58,681 bases of DNA from a virus (lineage: Duplodnaviria > Caudoviricetes), in the IMG/VR virus record IMGVR_UViG_3300025687_000049, positions 1 to 58,681 of that record; one strand, written 5' to 3'. Shown piece by piece: positions 4,127 through 43,153 of this stretch (position 1 is its first letter; each line of letters begins with the position of its first letter). Under the pieces are notes generated by a model. It was given only the letters and a program-made list of their open reading frames with translations, was not told where the DNA came from and did no database searches. Position numbers and translations under genes: made by a program.

Positions 4127-5472
4127 TAATTAATTCGCTTTACCTTGAAGGTGATTGGTGCCGGAGCTTCACTCTCTGTAGAGTCACCACCGGTATCCTT
4201 GCGTGGAGTATTAGCCCGACTGAAAGCACTCTGGTGTCTCACTGCCATACCACCATCATCGATTAGTTGCTCGAATTCTTCAAGAAGGTCAAAGAATTTC
4301 TCTTCCTCTGCCTCGAAGCTCTGCCACTTCTCTAGCCCTATCTGACCATTCAAACCCCCACTTAGTGCACGAGTCCTATGTTGCTTGGCTTTAAAGGCGG
4401 CATCTTCGAATCTCTCTCGAAGTAACACCTTCAGGGCATCAGGATCCCCGTTACCGGTTATCATCTGAATAGCCATCTCAACGTCTTGGTCAGACAAACG
4501 CCCACCAGGGTCGAGACTCTTAGCTAAGGTGTACGCCATATTCAGTACTAAGCCACGTGCTACAGCACTTTCTATACCTAACTGACGCGCATTCTGTAAG
4601 TACCCAGTCTTAGAGATGACTCTGTTGAACCGACTCTGGTCTACTTTCGCATCCTCTTCAGACTGGACTAAGTCCCCAGCTATACGAGCAACCCCAGTGA
4701 AGAAGGACCCTCCTTCAGCAAGAGCATCACCACCCGCGGTGAAGGCTAGTGGTGACTTCAGCATCTGCTTCAGGAATGACTGACCATTACGCATGAGTAC
4801 AGCACCATTTACAAGATCAACTTCGATCCGATCTAGACTACTCTTATTCAAACCACCGGTAGAGTTTGTACTATAATCTTCCAGCTTCAACGCATCTAAA
4901 CCACTACCGACTACATAAGTATGGGTACTGTCCTGTGCCTGACGACGTTGTAACTCAGCATCTATCTCTTCCGGAGTAGCCTTGGGATCTAGCTTAGCTA
5001 CCGGGGTAGTGTCTCCCATAGCATTACGCCTGAAGATGTACGGGGTCTTACTATCCCGGGCTGTCTCAAGAGCGTTCTTGAGCTCAAACTCTTTTTCATC
5101 GATCCCTTGTTTCAAGCGAGTCTGCTCCAGAGCTTGGCTCTGAAGTTTGATGATGTTGTCGTTGGCTTGGAGAGCTATCTTAGGATCTATTCCCGCTAAC
5201 TGCTCACGTACCTTGACTTGCTGCCGGAGCTGGAAGTCTGTTTCTGACTCCCCCTCCTTTCGTTCAACACTCTTCAGGGCACCAGCCAGGGCTTGTTCTT
5301 TTGCCCGGGCAGCACGTATCTCAGGTGAACTGAAGATAGCATTGATTACCTGTTGTGAATTTGCAGCTCTCTGTTGCTCGGGATTCCCGGTACGGAGCTG
5401 CTGTATCATATTGTCGGCCTGAGCTTTTAGCTCTTCGCTCCCAAGGAATTCGAATCCACCGATGTTAGCCAT
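4126..5472 (-). CDS. Internal virion/ejection protein
   Basis: Helical, DPGGRLSDQD motif seen in DNA-injection proteins; position. Confidence 0.55.
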   Translation of the reverse strand: MANIGGFEFLGSEELKAQADNMIQQLRTGNPEQQRAANSQQVINAIFSSPEIRAARAKEQALAGALKSVERKEGESETDFQLRQQVKVREQLAGIDPKIALQANDNIIKLQSQALEQTRLKQGIDEKEFELKNALETARDSKTPYIFRRNAMGDTTPVAKLDPKATPEEIDAELQRRQAQDSTHTYVVGSGLDALKLEDYSTNSTGGLNKSSLDRIEVDLVNGAVLMRNGQSFLKQMLKSPLAFTAGGDALAEGGSFFTGVARIAGDLVQSEEDAKVDQSRFNRVISKTGYLQNARQLGIESAVARGLVLNMAYTLAKSLDPGGRLSDQDVEMAIQMITGNGDPDALKVLLRERFEDAAFKAKQHRTRALSGGLNGQIGLEKWQSFEAEEEKFFDLLEEFEQLIDDGGMAVRHQSAFSRANTPRKDTGGDSTESEAPAPITFKVKRIN

Positions 5473-5481
5473 TTACCCTCC

Positions 5482-6930
5482 CTACAAGAATGAGGCTGAT
5501 ACATTCCCGGCATTACTGTTAATGCTAGGAGTGTTTGGTGTTAAGATGCTCGCTACTCCGGTAGGAGATCCTGTTGGGGATCCCCCGAACCTATTAGCCA
5601 GAGCACTGAATGCTGAGCCGATCCCACCTTGTGGAGCTAGTGCCCCAGATAGTTGAGCTAGGGCTGTTGCCGTGCTGTTGTCTTGTGGCATACCTATACC
5701 AGAAGCTCCCATGCGGGTAGATGCCTGGTTAGTCATGAAGCTACCAACTAAGCTAGCATTCTCTCGAGCGTCCTGGTTCACGCTAGTAGCACCACCAAGT
5801 GCGGCCAGTAAGTTCTGCAGAGCCAGTGATTGGTTCTGGTTGTTCAGTACGTTCGGAGCATTACTCTGACCTAAGGTCTGTTGTGCCTGTGAGAAGCCCT
5901 GCCCTTGGAGTAGGTTAGCCAAGCCAGAGACCTGGTTGAACCGGTTCGTTGCTCCACTCAGGAGTTGATCCTGTAGACCAGCTAGGCCTGAGCCTGTGCC
6001 GGCGAGGGTTTGACCTAAGCCTAGCTGTGCTTGTTGTGCATTCCGACCTTCCTGTCCTGCCATGATCTGGCGTTGTAAGTCAGCCTGACCTAATCCTCTA
6101 GCAAAGGCTTCTGTCTGTAGAGCCCCTCCAGTCGTCCCTAAGCGCCCTGTGGCGAATAGGTTGTCTAGGTTACCAGCGATAAGCCTATCCTCTTCTGGAC
6201 GTGCCTGGTCGCGGAGTAGGGATAACATTTGGTCACGTGAGGCTTCCTGTGTACCAGGTAAGGCACCGAAGGCGTTTTGTGCCTGTCCCATTACCTGCTG
6301 TTGTAAACCTTGAGCGAAGGGATTAGTGAACTGATCGGAAGCTTGTTGTCCTACTTGACCGAAGAGAGCACCCGTCCCTTGCAGGAGTTGATTCAGTGTC
6401 CCCTGACCTTGCTGACCTTGGTTAAGGAAGTTAGCGAAGGCTTGCTGTACGAACGGATCCATACCTTGAGCCTGCGCTGCTTGCTGAGCACTCCCTCCAG
6501 CGAGGCCTACCAGACCTGATCGGATACCTTCCAAATCACCAGCACTGGTGTTGATGCTACCGAGGTCACTACCCGTCAGACCACGTGTACCAGGTATCTG
6601 ACGCTGCCCAGGAGGGAGTGGGTTACCTTTCCCATCATAGTGTATACCGGTGGAAGGATCATATCCAAAAGGAGTTCCTGGTTCGGATAGATTAGCCGTG
6701 GAGCTGGTAACTCCAGTAGGAGCACTCCCAGTACCACCAGGAGATCCACCAAAGGTAACACTTGCCCCACCGGGACCAAAGAAGTCTATAGGGGAGAATG
6801 CATTAAGAGCGATAGACCGCCGAATCTTAGCATCTTTCTTCGCGTCTTTGGCAGCCTTGGATCCAGAAGACATACTTAAGCCCCCTGCGATAACCGAGCC
6901 TGCTGCACCTGCTACTGCTGCCCATGCCAT
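5482..6930 (-). CDS. DNA pilot/ejection protein
   Basis: MAWAAVAGAAGSVIAGG N-terminus, Gln/Gly/Ala-rich, GRLGTTGG motif. Confidence 0.6.
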   Translation of the reverse strand: MAWAAVAGAAGSVIAGGLSMSSGSKAAKDAKKDAKIRRSIALNAFSPIDFFGPGGASVTFGGSPGGTGSAPTGVTSSTANLSEPGTPFGYDPSTGIHYDGKGNPLPPGQRQIPGTRGLTGSDLGSINTSAGDLEGIRSGLVGLAGGSAQQAAQAQGMDPFVQQAFANFLNQGQQGQGTLNQLLQGTGALFGQVGQQASDQFTNPFAQGLQQQVMGQAQNAFGALPGTQEASRDQMLSLLRDQARPEEDRLIAGNLDNLFATGRLGTTGGALQTEAFARGLGQADLQRQIMAGQEGRNAQQAQLGLGQTLAGTGSGLAGLQDQLLSGATNRFNQVSGLANLLQGQGFSQAQQTLGQSNAPNVLNNQNQSLALQNLLAALGGATSVNQDARENASLVGSFMTNQASTRMGASGIGMPQDNSTATALAQLSGALAPQGGIGSAFSALANRFGGSPTGSPTGVASILTPNTPSINSNAGNVSASFL

Positions 6931-20792: not shown

Positions 20793-20833
20793 AATATTAC
20801 TATTATCGGAAAAACAGAACACTTGTCAACCCC
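20793..20833 (-). promoter_or_regulatory. Phage-specific promoter copy C (late arm)
   Basis: GGGGTTGACA-N15-CGATAATAGTAATATT, same motif and spacing as 26794 and 30457. Confidence 0.75.
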
Positions 20834-21258
20834 TAAAAGTGAAACTTTTTTGTAACAAAGTGTTACAGACTGAAACATATTGAAATAAATACCTACTTCT
20901 AACACCTAGAAGTTATCCAGTTTTTCTCCACTTTGGGTTACGAAAAACAGGATTCCATATATTTACTCTATTTTTTGTATACAAATCAACTACTTAACCC
21001 CCAACCTAAGAAAGTCTACTCCCCTGTAATTATCTTATTCTGCCTGACCAGAATTAGGTTCATATGTCGATCGAATTGTATAGCCTGACTTGACTTTTTC
21101 ATTTCTCGTTCCCTAGTGCTGCTACCGCAGAAAAAACCGCCTGGGTATAAGGGATGCCCCTCCTTAGAACAAAATGATCTAAGAAATTTCTTGACATGGG
21201 GAAGAGACTGTGGCTCAACTGTTCTGCAATAGCGCGGTTGCACATCAACTAGTATCTG

Positions 21259-21274
21259 TGTTTCACGTGGAACA
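21259..21274. promoter_or_regulatory. parS: parS-consensus palindrome
   Basis: TGTTTCACGTGGAACA (reverse complement TGTTCCACGTGAAACA) fits the chromosomal parS consensus TGTTNCACGTGAAACA. Confidence 0.65.
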
Positions 21275-21380
21275 TATCCGCAACTGTTGGGTTGCACATT
21301 GAATGTAAGTAGAATGTAGGGGGGAAGAGGGGGGTAGGGGGGATATACCTTTTAGTTATAAGCTTATAACAACACGGTAT

Positions 21381-21408
21381 TAGACATCCTCAACAAAAGG
21401 CGTATAAT
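21381..21408 (+). promoter_or_regulatory. Host sigma70-type early promoter
   Basis: TAGACA-N16-TATAAT; predicted start ~21415. Confidence 0.65.
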
Positions 21409-21414
21409 GATTAC

Positions 21415-21755
21415 ATCAGCTCGGGGATTACACCTCGACTCGGTAAGCACGGTAGGCCTCGCGGTCAGATCCACATAGCCAGAGTAGCAGTTGATCAGGG
21501 TCCCTCGAACGTAGCACAAATCGAGGTCTGGCGAGTAGGTCACCTTAGGATTACAGAGTTTATCCGAAGTGGCACATAGGATGAAAGCCGGGGGTTAAAA
21601 TAATAGCGTGTTGGTAGGTAGAACTACCAGTTGGATATAAGGATACATCCAATTCTGCCGGGCATCGCTGAGCATGTTGTCCCTAGTCTTCACTTAGGAG
21701 CGTAAGCTTCCAGTGTGTGAGGATCCTAGCGATTTAGTGATTCAACGGTGAAGAT
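21415..21755 (+). ncRNA. Structured 5' leader of early transcript
   Basis: No ORF >=60 aa; several hairpins (TCGGGG/CCTCGA, CCTCGA/TCGAGG, TGGTAG/CTACCA, TTGGAT/ATCCAA, GTCTTCAC/GTGAAGAT). Confidence 0.45.
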
Positions 21756-21925
21756 TCATATCATATCTCTCCAAAAACCTACTGATGACTCGAGAGAGAA
21801 CGGCTAGCAATAGCTGTTGATGCCGTGGTTGGCATCGAAACAAACGCAGCAATGCGGGGATGGAGTGGTTGGGATGCTTTCTAAGTATGCCGATCAGACC
21901 ATCCCAAAATTGTATAGGTAACCAT
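21756..21925 (+). ncRNA. Type I hammerhead ribozyme with inserted helices; predicted cleavage after 21914
   Basis: Stem I ACCTA(21777-81)/TAGGT(21915-19); CTGATGA 21782-88; stem II GATGCC/GGCATC then GAAA 21837-40; stem III ACAA/TTGT; GTA triplet 21912-14; loop II GTGGTT pairs with AACCAT 21920-25. Confidence 0.85.
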
Positions 21926-21938
21926 TGAGAATGATATT

Positions 21939-22127
21939 ATGACTACACAATTACACACCAAAGTGGATCTATTTGCCGGCACTCAGTACGAGGGCTTGAC
22001 ATACAACCAGATCCGTAGGATGCTTACACCTGCTCAGGTTCGAGTGCTACAGCAATTGAATAAGCGAGGAAAAAAGATCGCATCTCACCAGAATGCAATG
22101 CAACGTGTAATCCAGTCCTATCGGTAG
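21939..22127 (+). CDS. Early hypothetical protein
   Basis: First ORF after ribozyme cleavage site. Confidence 0.6.
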   Translation: MTTQLHTKVDLFAGTQYEGLTYNQIRRMLTPAQVRVLQQLNKRGKKIASHQNAMQRVIQSYR

Positions 22128-22160
22128 ATAGGTCTGTTTAGGTAAACCAGGAGACTAAAT

Positions 22161-22412
22161 ATGACTATTAAGACTACTAAAATCGAAGTGAAAAGGTTTG
22201 AAGCCCAGCAAATTTGCAGCGCACTATTTGACCGTGCTCGCCAATCAATTGAGGAAGAAAACTTCCATAATTGCGCTGAAGAGCTCGAGATCGCAGCAAA
22301 ATTTGTCCGGGCAATCAATCCTTCCTATCGCAAGACATACCGAGATGCGATAGATATCATATACTTCCAGAGAGCTTGCAGAATGGAGGATATAGACTAC
22401 GTAGAGCCTTAG
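22161..22412 (+). CDS. Early hypothetical protein
   Basis: Preceded by repeat element/RBS. Confidence 0.7.
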   Translation: MTIKTTKIEVKRFEAQQICSALFDRARQSIEEENFHNCAEELEIAAKFVRAINPSYRKTYRDAIDIIYFQRACRMEDIDYVEP

Positions 22413-22444
22413 GGCTCTCGTTTAGGATAACCAAGGAGATATAT

Positions 22445-22618
22445 ATGAATATTGTACGAGAAACAGAAGCGGATTTTTCACTTGACAGCTTCGAGATTGA
22501 GCATTTACGGGAAAATCTGCCGGTGATCGGCGTATGTGAGCTGACAGACTTCGAAGCCTTTCACTTAGGCTTGATCGATGAAGATCTACTGTTCAGGCTA
22601 CGTACTGAACTCCTCTAG
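22445..22618 (+). CDS. Early hypothetical protein (start reassigned)
   Basis: AAGGAG RBS then ATG 22445. Confidence 0.7.
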   Translation: MNIVRETEADFSLDSFEIEHLRENLPVIGVCELTDFEAFHLGLIDEDLLFRLRTELL

Positions 22619-22652
22619 GGAGTTCGGTTTAGGAATAACCACGGAGATTGAT

Positions 22653-23153
22653 ATGAAAGAGACACAACAATGGGAACAGCTTCAAGATACCCTTAATGGG
22701 GAGCAGAATTTCTGTATAATCGAGGAGCGAAAAGCGCCGATATTGTATGCGGTACTGCTACAGATCAAAAAGATCGATGGCATACCTGTTACACATCGGA
22801 ATGGGAAGGAAGGTCCCGAGGTTATTGTTGGTAATGGGTACTATGTCCAGAAATACCTGGAACTGCTATCCGATAGACCAAAATATACCAGAGCTGACTT
22901 CCAAGTCCAGATGGGACTTTTACTAGGCTACTCGTTTGAAGATTGTGTGGAGTTTGCAAAGAATCCACCCGATTGTGATTGCGAGAAATGCGGAGGTCCT
23001 AACGATCGCATTGAGCTTGGTCCAGTAGAGTATGAAGGTACAAGACCATACCAAAAGGCCACCTACCAAGGTGCCGCATATGGGACCTTATATCACCCGG
23101 ATCCTGAGCTGATAAAGCACAGTCCAGGGATACAAAATTGGTCAAAACCCTAG
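22653..23153 (+). CDS. Early hypothetical protein with CxCxxC motif (start reassigned)
   Basis: GGAG RBS then ATG 22653; MGLLLGY and CDCEKC. Confidence 0.7.
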   Translation: MKETQQWEQLQDTLNGEQNFCIIEERKAPILYAVLLQIKKIDGIPVTHRNGKEGPEVIVGNGYYVQKYLELLSDRPKYTRADFQVQMGLLLGYSFEDCVEFAKNPPDCDCEKCGGPNDRIELGPVEYEGTRPYQKATYQGAAYGTLYHPDPELIKHSPGIQNWSKP

Positions 23154-23200
23154 TGTTTTAGCCCTCTAACGGGGGCGTTTAGGTAACCAAGGAGATAGAT

Positions 23201-23809
23201 ATGTACCAGAAAGAAATGCGGAAAATCCAAGCCGGGTTTGCTGCTCAACCAGGTGAGACACTAGAACAAACAGTTAGGTTTGTACTCGCCACCATCCAAC
23301 AACAATTTTCTACTGTGGAGGACATTCTCCATACATGGGCGTTGCAGGGTGAAATGGCTCCCACTATGTGGGGCGCTAAGAGAAAGGGTGTTCGCTATAT
23401 TGAGAAGCATTCCCAGGAATTGGCCGCTAAATTGAAGGGGTGCGACACTGTGGAAGCAGTGGATACACTCTTGACAGTCCCCGGGCTGAACACGGTAAAG
23501 GCAAGCTTTGTTGCCCAGTGTCTCGGCTTTGGTGTTGGGTGTATAGATACCCACAATGCGAGGATCCATGGCGTAAACGTCAAATCCTACGCGGTTACTA
23601 AGAACTTGACAGCGAAGACTAGACTTGCTAAAATCAAGTCTTACATTGCATTATGTCAAGGACTAGGAGGATCCGCGGTGTTGTGGGACTCATGGTGCGA
23701 GCTTATCGCCGATAAGCAGAGCGCACACTTCGATGACGCGGAGGCTGTGAGTGCATACCATTCACACTGCATACTAAAGCATGTAAAACATGATCCTGCC
23801 AGATGGTAG
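23201..23809 (+). CDS. HhH-GPD DNA glycosylase-like protein
   Basis: LLTVPGLNTVKASFV...CIDTH helix-hairpin-helix plus conserved Asp. Confidence 0.55.
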   Translation: MYQKEMRKIQAGFAAQPGETLEQTVRFVLATIQQQFSTVEDILHTWALQGEMAPTMWGAKRKGVRYIEKHSQELAAKLKGCDTVEAVDTLLTVPGLNTVKASFVAQCLGFGVGCIDTHNARIHGVNVKSYAVTKNLTAKTRLAKIKSYIALCQGLGGSAVLWDSWCELIADKQSAHFDDAEAVSAYHSHCILKHVKHDPARW

Positions 23810-23838
23810 GATCGTCTAGGATAACCAAGGAGAATGAT

Positions 23839-24072
23839 ATGAAACTGACCGCAGAAAACCTTCGCAATATGCAAAGCAACCTGTTTACCATCGATGACGA
23901 TCTAGGGGAGACTATCAAACGTATCCCTAATGAATACGCCTATGTGGTGTTCATTGCTGCAAATACTGTCCTCGAGTCCTTAGCCGTGATGGTTGAGGAG
24001 GCAGAAGAGGAAGAGCTGACAGCTTTCGAGCTTCGAGAGCTGGAAGCCCAAGAGAAGGGAGGTGGAGAATGA
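23839..24072 (+). CDS. Early acidic hypothetical protein (start reassigned)
   Basis: AAGGAG RBS then ATG 23839. Confidence 0.7.
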   Translation: MKLTAENLRNMQSNLFTIDDDLGETIKRIPNEYAYVVFIAANTVLESLAVMVEEAEEEELTAFELRELEAQEKGGGE

Positions 24073-24185
24073 GCCACGATGACGACAATGTCCCTTTCTG
24101 GGACGCGGTGTTGATGGTCACTAGTAGTTATGTTAGTGTGATCATTGTTGTGCTGTTTACAGCATGGTTACTAGGGCAGCTTTAA
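24069..24185 (+). CDS. Small single-pass membrane peptide (38 aa)
   Basis: ATGA overlap, GGAG RBS, hydrophobic core; stop lies in the next element's hairpin. Confidence 0.5.
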   Translation: MSHDDDNVPFWDAVLMVTSSYVSVIIVVLFTAWLLGQL

Positions 24186-24218
24186 GCTGTCCGTCTAGGA
24201 ATAAACCAGGAGATTGAT

Positions 24219-24503
24219 ATGACCGAAAATGACCAAAGACTGTATGGAACCATAATCGACACCCTCGACGATAACCAGATCCTTGATCTAGTGCTTGTCA
24301 TGGGAGTTATGCCGTGGTATAGTGGTATCCCTCACAGTGTATATGTGAGTCTAAAAGAGTTCCTTGCCGACCAGGGACTAGATACCACCAAGTACGTGGT
24401 GAAAGCCTCTGTAGATTGGGAGGAAGTTGAAGCCGCTCGACCCGAAGATGGTAGTCCATGGGTAACCGTGGAAGCAGCTGATATTAGCGTAGAAGTCGAA
24501 TAG
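24219..24503 (+). CDS. Early hypothetical protein
   Basis: Preceded by repeat element/RBS. Confidence 0.7.
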   Translation: MTENDQRLYGTIIDTLDDNQILDLVLVMGVMPWYSGIPHSVYVSLKEFLADQGLDTTKYVVKASVDWEEVEAARPEDGSPWVTVEAADISVEVE

Positions 24504-24590
24504 ACTACACCGCGGAGAATTCCACTCCGTGGGCTACCTACATCCTAAGCATGATGTAAAACTGCTGTATAGATAACCAGGAGAAATGAT

Positions 24591-25007
24591 ATGACTAAGT
24601 TAACACGCGAATTGATCGAAAAAGAATACGCTAGAATTGAGGAAAAGAAGCGTAATCTCGAGGTCTTCGAGCCTCGTCCGATCCAAGCACAGTACGATGC
24701 TTTGTTCCAAGCCTTATATGACGTGGATCCGAACATCAACATTAAGGCCAATAGTAACGACGGTGAGTTCGATATCCGCTTCGCTGGAGACAGTGGGGTG
24801 TACCGGTGGGTATACTCAACTTTACGTGAGCATGGCTGGGAGCCAGAAGATCGTATCTCCGATGATACGCGGAACTACTTCACTACGTGGTACAGAAAAG
24901 AGGGCCTTCCATCTTTGTATGTAACCTTCTCGAGCACCGTATGCCAGCGTGTCCAGGTAGGAACCCGGACGGTAGAAGAGCCAATCTATGAGCTTGTGTG
25001 TGAGTAG
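24591..25007 (+). CDS. Early hypothetical protein
   Basis: Preceded by repeat element; C.RVQVG......P.YE..C C-terminus. Confidence 0.7.
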   Translation: MTKLTRELIEKEYARIEEKKRNLEVFEPRPIQAQYDALFQALYDVDPNINIKANSNDGEFDIRFAGDSGVYRWVYSTLREHGWEPEDRISDDTRNYFTTWYRKEGLPSLYVTFSSTVCQRVQVGTRTVEEPIYELVCE

Positions 25008-25053
25008 TTAACCTGGGCTCCGGCCCAGTTTAGGAATAACCAAGGAGAATGAT

Positions 25054-25206
25054 ATGGAAAGTAACCAAAACGAAAACCTTTTGTATGCAATTAAGCAGAT
25101 TGCGGCCCAGTTCTCTGGTGAGCGTAGGTTCACTGGGAGCGTAGAGTTCACTGTAGATCTGCGTCTCATAATCAACGCCCAGGACATCGAGGAGGAAAGC
25201 AATTGA
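25054..25206 (+). CDS. Early hypothetical protein (50 aa, not in ORF track)
   Basis: Repeat element/RBS then MESNQNENLL...ESN*. Confidence 0.65.
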   Translation: MESNQNENLLYAIKQIAAQFSGERRFTGSVEFTVDLRLIINAQDIEEESN

Positions 25207-25352
25207 GCGATTTTGTAGCAGCCTTTTTTATGATGATCTTTCTGTGTGCAGGCTTGCTAGTCTTATGGCTAGCGAGTATACTGAACTCAGTGACCCTCGT
25301 ATTTATAGGCCTAGCCATCATAGCAATCAGCACAAAAGGAGCTAAGGGATAG
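25203..25352 (+). CDS. Small membrane protein (49 aa)
   Basis: TTG start overlapping upstream TGA, GAGGAGG RBS, two hydrophobic stretches. Confidence 0.45.
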   Translation: MSDFVAAFFMMIFLCAGLLVLWLASILNSVTLVFIGLAIIAISTKGAKG

Positions 25353-25391
25353 GGGCGAAAGCCCCCGTCTAGGAATAACCAGGAGATAGAT

Positions 25392-25571
25392 ATGAAAGAG
25401 CAGTTAACAAATAAAGAGATCGTTAATTGGCTGGTATCAAATGATATTGGCCTGAGCGATGTGATCGACGCAGTGATTGACGTAAATGGGATCATTGGTG
25501 TAGGATTGATAACCCTCGCAGAGGGATTGTCGCAGTATGTCCAGGACCAGATAACACCACAAGGAGATTAA
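25392..25571 (+). CDS. Early hypothetical protein (59 aa, not in ORF track)
   Basis: Repeat element/RBS then MKEQLTNKEI...QGD*. Confidence 0.65.
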   Translation: MKEQLTNKEIVNWLVSNDIGLSDVIDAVIDVNGIIGVGLITLAEGLSQYVQDQITPQGD

Positions 25572-25572
25572 G

Positions 25573-25692
25573 ATGGGTGGTCACTTGTATTGGAGCTGTG
25601 CCGTATGGGTTGTACAGTACGGTGGGTTCACACAATATCAGTTGGATGTTGCCACTACGTGGGCACTCCAGATCCTTTCTGAGGAGGCGTAG
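25573..25692 (+). CDS. Small hypothetical protein (39 aa)
   Basis: AAGGAG RBS, fills the gap exactly. Confidence 0.45.
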   Translation: MGGHLYWSCAVWVVQYGGFTQYQLDVATTWALQILSEEA

Positions 25693-25881
25693 ATGAAGAC
25701 GCTACTGGTAGTGCTGTGTGCGTTTAATACGCACTGTGAGCACGAGTGGGAAGCGGTGTATGCCGCGGATAACTTAAGGGAGTGCAGAGCACAAGGGAAG
25801 GCTCAATTCCCTGAATACGAGCGCCTATGGCTCTGCGTGAAAGATATTCAAGTTAAAGATGAATGGAGCGAGTTCGAATGA
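25693..25881 (+). CDS. Small Cys-containing hypothetical protein
   Basis: GAGGAGG RBS. Confidence 0.55.
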   Translation: MKTLLVVLCAFNTHCEHEWEAVYAADNLRECRAQGKAQFPEYERLWLCVKDIQVKDEWSEFE

Positions 25882-26072
25882 ATGATATAGTACACATCAC
25901 ACAGATGATATCCCTATGTGGGCAACGATTGGACCGTATCCAATCAGACGAGCAGCGGGTACGGATCCTACAGGAGCTGGATGACCTTCTCTTCGAAGCA
26001 GAAGGGTATCTCAAGGATGAACTTTACCACTACGAGGAGACCATCGACGGTCAGCACGGCTCACCTTTCTAG
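25878..26072 (+). CDS. Hypothetical protein
   Basis: ATGA overlap, GGAG RBS. Confidence 0.55.
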   Translation: MNDIVHITQMISLCGQRLDRIQSDEQRVRILQELDDLLFEAEGYLKDELYHYEETIDGQHGSPF

Positions 26073-26134
26073 GTACCCATATAGGGAACCTTCGTACCCG
26101 AAAAGGGTACGTCTAGATAACCTTGGAGAATGAT

Positions 26135-26824
26135 ATGACAGAACTGAGTAGTTTTCAGCTCTACAGCATTGACCTAGATGCCGCGGAGATTGAACACAAG
26201 ACCAAACACCAGCTCGCCGGCTTACATGCTGAAGCCTTGAAGGGAAACCAGAAGGCGTGGCATGATCTTTGGTTGTACGGGACCAAACTGGTCCTGAAGA
26301 TATGCAACAAGCTCTCGTCTATGGACTTACTCCGTTGTGAGTACGAAGAGGCTGTAGCTGAGGGGAATGCTGCGATCGGAGAGGCACTGACCCGGTGGAA
26401 CCCTAAGAAGTCCAGCTTCGGTACCTGGGTATGGATCCGGGTTCGAGGTGCAATCCTCGATGAGTCGAAGAAGTGGTCTCCTGAACCAGGTGTAGTCCCT
26501 GCCGAGGTGACTCTATCAGATGACCAGGAGCATGGTGATGACGAGTACAACAATTCTCTCTATGATCTGGCTGACGAGGAATATCTGGGTGAAGATCCTG
26601 CTCTGGATCTCGATAAAGCCCGGTTGAGAAGAGTCCTTCCAGCACTACCTGAGAGGGAGTTGAAGTACGTAACCCTGTACTACTTTGAGGACCAGACTCT
26701 CAATGAGATAGCCGATCTGGAGGGTATTAGCCGGAATATGGTACACAAGATTCTTAAGCGAGCTGAGGCTCGTTTAGGTGAATTGTTATTGGGGGGGTTA
26801 ACAATCTCCGCGTTCGAGCGATAA
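26135..26824 (+). CDS. Sigma-70 family RNA polymerase sigma factor
   Basis: Region 2 (EG...I.EA..RWNP....FGTW..IRVRGAILD) and region 4 (LPERE...V.LYY....TL.EIA...GIS...V....RA..RL). Confidence 0.88.
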   Translation: MTELSSFQLYSIDLDAAEIEHKTKHQLAGLHAEALKGNQKAWHDLWLYGTKLVLKICNKLSSMDLLRCEYEEAVAEGNAAIGEALTRWNPKKSSFGTWVWIRVRGAILDESKKWSPEPGVVPAEVTLSDDQEHGDDEYNNSLYDLADEEYLGEDPALDLDKARLRRVLPALPERELKYVTLYYFEDQTLNEIADLEGISRNMVHKILKRAEARLGELLLGGLTISAFER

Positions 26825-26834
26825 TAGTAATATT
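26794..26834 (+). promoter_or_regulatory. Phage-specific promoter copy A (primase/helicase block)
   Basis: GGGGTTAACA-N15-CGATAATAGTAATATT. Confidence 0.75.
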
Positions 26835-26924
26835 AGTATTAGTATAAGTGTAATTAGTAGTTTAGGGATGCCCCAAAGCATCCCATAATTATAAGTAATT
26901 ACATAAAGTTTAGGAGATATAGAT

Positions 26925-27224
26925 ATGTCTGATAGACATGAATTGTTTGAAGAACTGGAAGCCTTTCACCCTTTGTGGTTCAAGGTATACCATAATCTAG
27001 AAGAGGCTGTTGAAGCAGCCTCAATAGAGACTCCATACATCATCGACTTATGGGAAGACTACCTACTGACAACGGAACGTATCGTAGATGGAGTCCCAGA
27101 CATCAAGAAGTACATCGAGGAGTGTCAAGAAGCGGAGCAGAATGCTCCTGAGTTTCAGAGAGCTGTATCGACTATCCGGTATGTTAACCGGATCGATGAT
27201 AACAAGTTCTACTTCTCGGAGTAG
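26925..27224 (+). CDS. Hypothetical acidic protein
   Basis: AGGAG RBS. Confidence 0.65.
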   Translation: MSDRHELFEELEAFHPLWFKVYHNLEEAVEAASIETPYIIDLWEDYLLTTERIVDGVPDIKKYIEECQEAEQNAPEFQRAVSTIRYVNRIDDNKFYFSE

Positions 27225-41716: not shown

Positions 41717-43062
41717 TATCTAGCGTCCACGTAGGCTTGCGCTTGTACTAACGTAATGTTTTCCATAACAACTACATGCCTATTCCACATTGATGTTGCT
41801 GGTCCTACCCTAGATTGCGAGCTGTTGTGCCTGAACAAAAACCCGTCTATCTGTAGGTCGTTTTCGTAGATAACCGGGCACTCGTCATACACCTTTATTG
41901 CCGCCCCCGCTTGTGAGTCCTGTATCCAAAGGCTTAGAGTGTCGTTGTCAAAATCAAGAAACGCCCAATAGTAAATCCAACGATCAGGCAAAATATCCAG
42001 ACTTCCAACCTTCGGCTCCAGCGTATCACCAGAACCCACCGTGCCAGCCGTGACGCCTTCCGCAGAACCGTACAACCGGACATTTGGCGTTCCAACAACT
42101 CCCTCAACGTTGTTGTAAGACGTTCTAATTTCAACCGCTCGTCCAGGTCCGGCATCACCGTAAAGGATGAACTCTTTGTGCGTATTCATACCGCCAACGC
42201 TACCATCAGGGTCTTTCTGCGCCCAAACGTCTCCCCACTTGTTTTCCCAATAAAAGAATGCTGTTCCTGAATTTGCGGCTATATTCAAATCTGGATTTTG
42301 CCCATTACCCAAACCCATGTTTACACCGTTCCCGTCATTGACGCCGAACTTCTGAATAGCGGCTTCCTCAACCGGGTCATAATCAATAGAGTTGGTGTTG
42401 TAGTTGGCAACTTGCGTCCAAACTGCTGGCGCTATTTGATCTGTAAAAACATCGCCATCACCATAAAGAGGAAAGCCCCGAGTAGTCGCAGGCTCCGCTG
42501 CTAACATTTCATAATAGGAGTGCTGTCCGCCAACCACAAAACCACTGAATGTACTAGCCTTCACGCTACTAAAATCGGATTCATTACCAGCAAGGTCACG
42601 TGCGGTTATTTTATACCAAGTCTGTATAGACGTATCGAACGCTGAGTCTGTATAAGAATTACCCGGAGCACCAACTGTTGCTATAGGAACCCCAAAACCA
42701 GAGTCAGCAGATGTGGTCGATTTATATATTCGATAGTCCTGAATATCCGGCTCAGTATTACTTGTCCAAATTAACTGTATAGAGTTAGTCTGCTGGTTCG
42801 TTAAAAGAAATCCGGCAGGGGCTAAGGGAGGGTCTACATCTACACCAGGATGTTTTGCGCCTATACCCTGTAAAATACTTACTGACACTTTCGGCTGCCT
42901 AATCTCATACTCGCCCAATTCAGCGTTAAGAAAAAACTCATTTGTTTCAAAAACGTCCTGAAATCTGTCTTGGAATACCCATTCATCACCTACTAATTTA
43001 TAGACTTCAAGGTATCTTGAATCTGAACCATTGCCGCCGCGCTTTGTTACGCTATTTGGCAT
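41716..43062 (-). CDS. FN3 + lectin-like (LamG/polysaccharide-lyase-like) virion protein
   Basis: PP.AP...W..N.E.D...Y.IY...Y.D...Y.ITA.D..GNES FN3 motif followed by an aromatic beta domain. Confidence 0.7.
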   Translation of the reverse strand: MPNSVTKRGGNGSDSRYLEVYKLVGDEWVFQDRFQDVFETNEFFLNAELGEYEIRQPKVSVSILQGIGAKHPGVDVDPPLAPAGFLLTNQQTNSIQLIWTSNTEPDIQDYRIYKSTTSADSGFGVPIATVGAPGNSYTDSAFDTSIQTWYKITARDLAGNESDFSSVKASTFSGFVVGGQHSYYEMLAAEPATTRGFPLYGDGDVFTDQIAPAVWTQVANYNTNSIDYDPVEEAAIQKFGVNDGNGVNMGLGNGQNPDLNIAANSGTAFFYWENKWGDVWAQKDPDGSVGGMNTHKEFILYGDAGPGRAVEIRTSYNNVEGVVGTPNVRLYGSAEGVTAGTVGSGDTLEPKVGSLDILPDRWIYYWAFLDFDNDTLSLWIQDSQAGAAIKVYDECPVIYENDLQIDGFLFRHNSSQSRVGPATSMWNRHVVVMENITLVQAQAYVDAR

Positions 43063-43153
43063 TATTTTCTCCTTTCATTGTATTTAGTCACCACTTGGGA
43101 CAGGAAGTAGAACCCGACATAGTGTGGCGCGTTCGCTTCCTCGTCAACGATGC
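42380..43153. repeat. Diverged direct repeat, copy 2
   Basis: Matches 1-775. Confidence 0.95.

Follow-up and report, generated by a model that had tools for sequence, protein, structure and literature searches.

What are the short cassettes that punctuate the early genes of this phage, and what reads them? The stretch analysed here (the window) is the complete IMG/VR virus record IMGVR_UViG_3300025687_000049, 58,681 bases long. Within it, ten cassettes (22117-26137) lie among small early genes upstream of a phage sigma-factor gene, behind a leader RNA that contains a hammerhead-like core and one further copy of the motif, the cis site. The evidence assembled below indicates that the cassettes are very probably elements that act as RNA, and fairly likely the pairing interface for the leader RNA. 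A bolder reading, in which the leader hammerhead would cut the cassettes at a distance, is tentative, and we give it a probability of roughly 40%.

Both strands of the window were searched with the pattern GT-N-TAG, 1-7 nucleotides (nt), AACC, the third base being left free. Fourteen matches were obtained, 11 of which are the sites listed in an earlier note made from the sequence, with the triplets that it had stated: GTT at five sites, GTC at four and GTA at two. Each of the 11 reads GT-H-TAG and AACC on the + strand, followed by a (G)GAGA ribosome site and ATG. The three other matches (25498, a GTG within an open reading frame (ORF); 30966; and 39015 on the minus strand) come without a ribosome site or ATG. 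A chance origin of the cassettes is excluded, because the sites share one strand and a span of 4.2 kb, each stands just ahead of a gene start, and the cassette recurs in three related phages. The bare hexamer GT-N-TAG is unremarkable (65 occurrences on the + strand of the window), and TGGTT, the complement of AACC, shows no enrichment.

The cis site lies in the leader at 21912 (GTA), and the ten remote cassettes follow on the same strand. Four GTT cassettes come first: 22117-22163 (hairpin 22117-22132, GTT 22136, ATG 22161), 22403-22447 (hairpin 22403-22418, GTT 22420, ATG 22445), 22607-22655 (hairpin 22607-22625, GTT 22627, ATG 22653) and 23161-23203 (hairpin 23161-23176, GTT 23177, ATG 23201). 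Cassettes 5 and 6 carry GTC, at 23792-23841 (hairpin 23792-23813, GTC 23814, ATG 23839) and 24174-24221 (hairpin 24174-24192, GTC 24193, ATG 24219). In cassette 7 (24520-24593; GTA 24567, ATG 24591), a conserved block of about 45 nt replaces the abutting hairpin. The last three are located at 25014-25056 (hairpin 25014-25027, GTT 25028, ATG 25054), 25352-25394 (hairpin 25352-25365, GTC 25367, ATG 25392) and 26094-26137 (hairpin 26094-26110, GTC 26111), the final one adjoining the sigma-factor gene (26135-26824, with its ATG at 26135), which encodes regions 2 and 4. The ORFs downstream of the cassettes are open, and a unit bounded by cassettes holds between one and four ORFs, so that genes and cassettes do not correspond one to one.

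Relatives were found by scanning metagenomes with aligned homologues of the sigma factor, which yielded six loci (L003-L008) with 44-56% sigma identity. In three of them cassettes stand upstream of the sigma gene (10 in L003, 2 in L004 and 12 in L008). For the relatives only TAG and AACC were fixed and the upstream triplet was left free. Of the resulting 38 rows, four were dropped (two duplicate matches and two within ORFs without GT or hairpin), and site 2535 of L008, which has the full motif and no ATG, was added, giving a set of 35 sites from four phages. All six loci end before their leader. Across the set, the G, T, T, A and G of GT-H-TAG are invariant (35/35), the following G is present at 28/35 sites, and conservation drops on both sides. 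The distance from TAG to AACC ranges from 1 to 7 nt and that from AACC to the ribosome site from 0 to 5 nt, so that the invariant GT and TAG and the variable spacing to AACC described in the earlier note extend to the relatives. Linkers of these lengths between the blocks fit RNA pairing across internal loops, not a promoter, and their variability speaks against any DNA site of fixed geometry. Each phage has its own linker style: in L008, AAT follows AACC at 11 of the 12 sites, and the twelfth reads GAAT. Other searches added no further family members. The sigma factor and the helicase, used as single-protein queries, matched nothing in viral contigs, and the sigma-factor alignment matched nothing in viral or genome contigs. 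Cassette DNA patterns gave only single chance matches in viral and genome collections (L002, L013, L014), and a pattern combining the anti-cassette arm with the core gave only chance matches in coding DNA (L015-L018).

The element upstream of the triplet is conserved as a shape. A hairpin was counted when the 34 nt upstream folded at -8 kcal/mol or lower with a stem ending within 1 nt of the G; such an abutting stable hairpin occurs at 28 of the 35 sites, compared with 7.7% of 1,200 windows drawn at random from the same regions. The seven misses comprise the leader site, the four homologous 24567-type sites, one stem that ends 2 nt off and one hairpin of -6.6 kcal/mol. Hairpin sequences are distinct in 29/30, the closing pair is G-C in 24/30, and loops measure 3-4 nt in 25/30. 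The proposal that the repeats keep hairpin structure rather than sequence is therefore well supported. RNAfold recovered the hairpins quoted in the earlier note and, at the site 24567 that it had called weak, no abutting hairpin at all; the site at 21912 sits in the leader. Its remark that the hairpin often contains the upstream stop codon is true of about five of the ten sites, judged from the sequence and the ORF ends.

The third base requires a more cautious reading. Hammerhead substrates follow the NUH rule, with U at position 16.1 and anything but G at position 17 (as set out in the part of PMC8495972 that treats substrates), and the earlier note had claimed that the repeats obey it. The remote cassettes agree with the rule: U is present at 35/35 sites, and the third position is C at 18 (GTC), U at 14 (GTT), A at three (GTA) and G at none. 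Compared with base composition, the lack of G has P ~2e-5 over the 35 sites and ~6e-4 over the 24 sites of the relatives, which contain no GTG at all, although common GUG variants had been named as the finding that would count against the rule. The position is, in the main, a pyrimidine (32/35). All three purines are A, which would happen by chance one time in eight were A and G tolerated alike, and the part of the claim that A is allowed and G excluded hence depends on three sites. The data are in keeping with the NUH claim but give it little statistical weight.

The block that replaces the hairpin before 24567-type sites, about 45 nt long, is conserved in sequence in all four phages (window 24520-24566, L003 3262-3317, L004 378-427, L008 2590-2633). 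It forms a hairpin with a conserved CU(A/G)AGCA loop, and its stem shows a compensatory change (ACAUC/GAUGU versus ACAAC/GUUGU). The segment upstream of it contains CUCC, UGGUU and CUA, which are complementary to GGAG, AACC and UAG in the next cassette. The folds of L004 and L008 pair this local anti-cassette segment with the cassette, with weak z-scores.

We next turn to the leader, whose features all lie on the + strand. The best match of a promoter scan is a sigma-70-type early promoter at 21381-21408 (TAGACA, 16 nt, TATAAT; 11/12 positions), followed by about 500 nt without an ORF. The fold of 21412-21945 has z = -4.39, and 0/100 shuffles were as stable. Within it, a structured ORF-free leader (21412-21754) precedes a hammerhead-like domain that begins with a 5' arm (21755-21781) antisense to the cassette. 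This arm, which unconstrained folds pair with 21915-21937, includes an anti-start/anti-Shine-Dalgarno segment (21757-21772) and ACCUA (21777-21781), which pairs with UAGG(U). CUGAUGA (21782-21788) supplies core positions 3-9 and forms an unpaired junction strand in the minimum-energy fold. Two GNRA-capped hairpins (21789-21798 and 21799-21818), a non-canonical feature of the fold, stand between A9 and stem II (21819-21836), a hairpin whose loop GGUU complements the cassette AACC. The next junction strand (21837-21844) comprises the GAAA core (G12-A14, A15.1), C15.2 and the 5' strand of stem III. A branched extension of stem III (21845-21905) consists of a GNRA hairpin (21845-21856) and a long arm (21857-21905), and is followed by the cis site (21910-21941): UUGUA, a putative cut after 21914, UAGGU, AACC, GAGA and the ATG at 21939 of the first early gene.

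When 21765-21945 is folded free of constraints, the minimum-energy structure (-67.6 kcal/mol, z = -6.31, 0/200 shuffles as stable) is a multi-helix junction closed by ACCUA/UAGGU, in which the strands CUGAUGA, GAAACAAA and AAAAUUGUA come in hammerhead order. In the leader fold, GAAACAAA comes after the two GNRA hairpins and a hairpin of 6-7 base pairs (bp), and AAAAUUGUA comes after the GNRA hairpin and long arm, directly before UAGGU. A possible 4-bp stem III (ACAA with UUGU) would place the scissile bond after 21914. Beyond the junction, stem I continues in an 11-bp distal helix between the leader and the first gene's Shine-Dalgarno box and spacer. The hammerhead consensus, as given in the relevant section of PMC3088659, consists of C3 U4 G5 A6 N7 G8 A9, G12 A13 A14, A15.1-U16.1 and H17, with pairs 1.1-2.1 and 10.1-11.1; in sequence and unconstrained fold, 21755-21914 carries every one of these core letters and flanking pairs. 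A search of the window for CTGA-N-GA found a core with matching arms only at 21782, with CUA directly before it. An array of complete cis-acting hammerheads is rejected on this count; moreover, the cassettes, at about 45 nt including the ribosome site, are too short to hold one.

Three GNRA-capped hairpins lie within 70 nt (21789-21856), with loops GAGA, GCAA and GCAA, which suggests tertiary contacts within a larger folded leader, some 500 nt long, for which Rfam has no family. Between near-identical strains in two DNA runs, eight differing positions fall together in one leader hairpin (21631-21652); they include two compensatory pair changes (21632 with 21651, and 21633 with 21650). Four DNA runs of near-identical strains show no variation in 21756-21940 or in any cassette, and are hence uninformative on covariation there.

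The leader and the remote cassettes match each other in detail. Predicted duplexes of the 5' arm with the ten remote sites range from -14.2 to -21.5 kcal/mol, and at 8/10 of them the energy is lower than at the cis site (-17.8); the mean over 119 ORF starts is -7.3, in a set that includes the cassette-preceded starts as its lowest values. On the 3' side of a remote site, pairing is predicted to comprise 3-5 bp next to the core and 9-15 bp distally, and some arm bases unpaired in cis find partners there in the start-codon G and the A's after it. The 5' side offers no more than 2 bp (GU with AC), beyond which the substrate folds into its own hairpin. Each conserved block of the cassette has a partner in the leader RNA, and conservation ends where the core-flanking pairing ends. 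The abutting hairpin is all that is missing at the cis site, where the ribozyme itself would contribute a possible 4-bp stem III.

These correspondences can be joined into a mechanism. One long early transcript would start at the sigma-70-type promoter. Every cassette along it would offer a hairpin free in sequence, then an unpaired GUH with UAG(G) behind it, the AACC box and finally a strong ribosome site. Having first cleaved itself 3' of 21914, the ribozyme would go on to dock on remote sites. There, G16.2 and U16.1 of the cassette would pair with C15.2 and A15.1 beside the GAAA core, UAG(G) would find its partner in the (C)CUA directly before CUGAUGA, and the stretch from GGAGA to AUG would pair with the distal 5' arm, while AACC may touch the GGUU of loop II. 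Cleavage would follow H, leaving the upstream unit with its 3' hairpin and the downstream unit with a 5'-OH UAGG leader, so that a single transcript would be converted into separately protected single-unit mRNAs. The hairpin may stack on the 2-bp stem III and may protect the new 3' end, as the earlier note had suggested. A single elaborated hammerhead might accordingly be a multi-substrate enzyme for ten remote cassettes, the substrate hairpin taking the place of stem III, at the same rough 40%. Remote hammerhead cleavage is the one reading that covers every conserved block.

Several observations weigh against remote cleavage. Some concern the core itself: its layout departs from the canonical one by 30 nt (the two GNRA hairpins) between A9 and G10.1, an unprecedented insertion. 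Rfam gave no match for the whole window at the gathering score and none at E <= 10 on 21300-22300, which the insertion probably explains; on 21900-26200 at E <= 10, the only match was a chance snoRNA (E = 7.6). Others concern the reaction. Stem III of the ribozyme is closed in cis, and the ribozyme would retain its strand of that stem after the self-cut, so that the 2 bp offered by a remote GU would have to compete with an intramolecular helix of 4 bp. At about 16 bp, stem I is long enough to predict slow product release and, since it takes in the ribosome site, would mask that site once freed. There is one ribozyme per 11 sites on each transcript, and the 1-7 nt between UAG and AACC fit poorly with a precise loop contact; in the type II hammerhead tested in PMC3088659, insertions or deletions next to the pseudoknot lower the rate by orders of magnitude. 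The substrate side raises similar doubts: the pyrimidine bias could equally be demanded by a protein or another RNA partner, and GUU, at 14/35 sites, is unusual for natural hammerheads. The published account of natural triplets names GUC, GUA and AUA, with GUC mainly used, and its available text leaves GUU unmentioned. The complementarity of the arm to the cassettes is partly automatic, the cis site being itself a cassette copy. Finally, the ribosome module from GGAGA to ATATG also occurs without GUH or AACC (window 26914, L003 5642, L008 4561), and one relative (L006, 1-4500), with a sigma factor 46% identical, has overlapping, translationally coupled early genes and zero cassettes; the cassette system therefore belongs to a subclade.

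The alternative that survives best, although on balance it is unlikely, is that the cassettes are processing or regulatory sites that involve no ribozyme catalysis. In one version, an endoribonuclease of host or phage would recognise the hairpin with the single-stranded GUY-UAG and cut there; in the other, the anti-cassette arm of the leader would mask ribosome sites and nothing would be cut. A hairpin beside a single-stranded motif is a usual target of an RNase or RNA-binding protein, and the pyrimidine preference suits a protein too. However, none of the ten early proteins (0/10) matches a nuclease or RNA-binding family (Pfam, E <= 1), the cassette motif is probably unlike the preference of RNase E, and stems of 4-9 bp are probably too short for RNase III. 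Masking is what an arm over Shine-Dalgarno and start codon at -14 to -21 kcal/mol predicts, and the second, local anti-cassette segment before 24567 and its homologues suggests control based on pairing; a purely antisense role, by contrast, leaves the invariant GU upstream of UAG unexplained. It would also be a coincidence that the hammerhead scissile bond falls at the same position of the motif.

Somewhat less plausible still are gene-boundary signals that are never cut, in which the hairpin insulates or stabilises the message or weakly attenuates transcription, the remainder is an optimised translation-start module, copies are spread and homogenised by recombination from cassette to cassette in the manner of the T4-type PeSL, and the hammerhead acts in cis only. 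PeSLs are stem-loop and promoter cassettes that drive modular shuffling, according to the portion of PMC2839356 that treats them. The cassettes here bound units of one to four ORFs among small genes, none of which has a Pfam match above threshold, the linker style of each phage (such as the AAT of L008) suggests concerted evolution, and the ribosome module occurs without the other blocks. Yet no cassette contains a sigma-70-type promoter, and a terminator-like tail follows 1/10 hairpins. Recombination alone also fails to hold GU, UAG and AACC across phages with 44-56% sigma identity, and leaves unexplained why conservation starts exactly at G16.2. Two specific identities were rejected: intrinsic terminators, given that only the hairpin at 22117-22132 passes a T-run scan and the tails read GTTTAGG or GTCTAGG, and a PeSL cassette proper, given that the 15 sigma-70-like scan matches in 20800-27000 place no promoter inside a cassette.

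Promoters, whether for host polymerase with a host or phage sigma factor or hairpin-dependent in the manner of N4, are very improbable: the cassettes do stand ahead of gene starts, the phage's own sigma factor has regions 2 and 4, and the TAGGAT-like hexamers loosely resemble a -10 box, but 0/15 of the sigma-70-like matches overlap a cassette, inter-block spacing varies by up to 6 nt (the irregularity that the earlier note had rightly called unlike a DNA promoter), the differing sequences of the upstream hairpins rule out a -35 box, the motif occurs only in the early block that lies before the sigma gene, and AT-rich promoter-like stretches of another kind precede other genes. Those stretches, of the TAATTATAA type (window 26880-26927, L003 ~5610-5655, L008 ~4530-4575), directly precede the GGAGA-to-ATATG module without hairpin or AACC, and may be middle promoters; the copy in the window has GTT-TAGG fused to the ribosome site. 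N4-type hairpin promoters were rejected because the 2,915-amino-acid protein of the window is a tail fibre rather than a virion RNA polymerase. Further identities were set aside from general knowledge, namely integron attC, DnaA boxes and primase sites, and also RNase P/CCA mimicry, CRISPR-repeat mimicry and three-frame stops, each for a misfit of spacing, hairpin variability or the location ahead of every ribosome site.

The record itself probably exceeds the phage. Bases 1-775 are repeated at 42380-43153 (754/774 identical, 97.4%), the sigma-factor gene of the window also occurs on a 42.5-kb contig, and the contig of one relative measures 42.8 kb; together these make about 42.4 kb the probable length of the phage unit. 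The final 16 kb of the window are AT-richer, encode the siphovirus-type tail fibre of 2,915 amino acids and may be a second phage joined in assembly. The phage genes include a family A DNA polymerase, primase, DnaB-type helicase, exonuclease and ribonucleotide reductase, together with large terminase, portal and major head protein; an RNA polymerase of the phage was not found among the window proteins. By DNA polymerase, the nearest named kin are VpV262-type vibriophages (37-38% identity), whose early genes are tightly packed in their annotation. A blastn search of 21500-26500 against 50,697 phage records gave no match, and the lineage has no cultured member there; DNA of the phage is present in freshwater metagenome runs from several studies.

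The small self-cleaving ribozymes known from nature all act in cis. If remote cleavage is correct, the leader would be the first natural small ribozyme with one enzyme and many targets, bringing multi-substrate hammerhead catalysis into biology. It would explain how early transcripts are punctuated in some phages without a protein RNase, and would provide a compact natural design for cistron insulation, with a hairpin of about 20 nt and a 7-nt site per gene. Even without cutting, the cassette is a conserved gene-boundary signal. Full-text literature searches turned up no description of a hammerhead arrangement with one enzyme and many sites, nor of the conserved gene-boundary cassette.

Among known systems, the T4-type PeSL (Arbiol et al. 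2010, PMC2839356) resembles the cassettes, in the portion of that paper that describes it, as a short stem-loop cassette repeated between small non-essential early genes, and in both cases modular shuffling is probably favoured. A PeSL, however, combines a strong sigma-70-like promoter with an effective terminator; the cassettes have neither and carry the single-stranded GUH-UAG/AACC instead. Engineered trans-cleaving hammerheads, as outlined in the corresponding section of PMC8495972, share with the arrangement proposed here U16.1, a non-G at position 17 and, in the predicted pairing, flanking complementarity to two arms. They use arms of several bp on both sides, whereas the system here would be natural, with a stem III of 2 bp and a stacked substrate hairpin. 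The discontinuous hammerhead in the 3' untranslated region (UTR) of mammalian Clec2 (Martick et al. 2008, as summarised in the review PMC6765202) is similar in that its two strands, enzyme and substrate, are distant parts of a single transcript that have to meet; it differs in having one enzyme and one substrate in a eukaryotic 3' UTR, in contrast to ten remote substrates in a phage operon.

The closest precedent is that of prophage hammerhead arrays, which flank single genes, cleave in vitro and were proposed to cut long phage transcripts, according to the section of Perreault et al. 2011 (PMC3088659) that treats them. Common to both are the phage setting, the boundaries around single genes or short blocks and the proposed purpose of converting a long transcript into gene-length mRNAs; in the haloviruses HF1 and HF2, described in the same part of that paper, a hammerhead likewise lies a few nt before the start codon of an early gene. 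Unlike the hammerheads reported there, the core here has a two-hairpin insertion of 30 nt and is missed by Rfam. And where those arrays place a full ribozyme at every boundary, this phage has one core in its leader, with a substrate half and a hairpin at each of ten boundaries.

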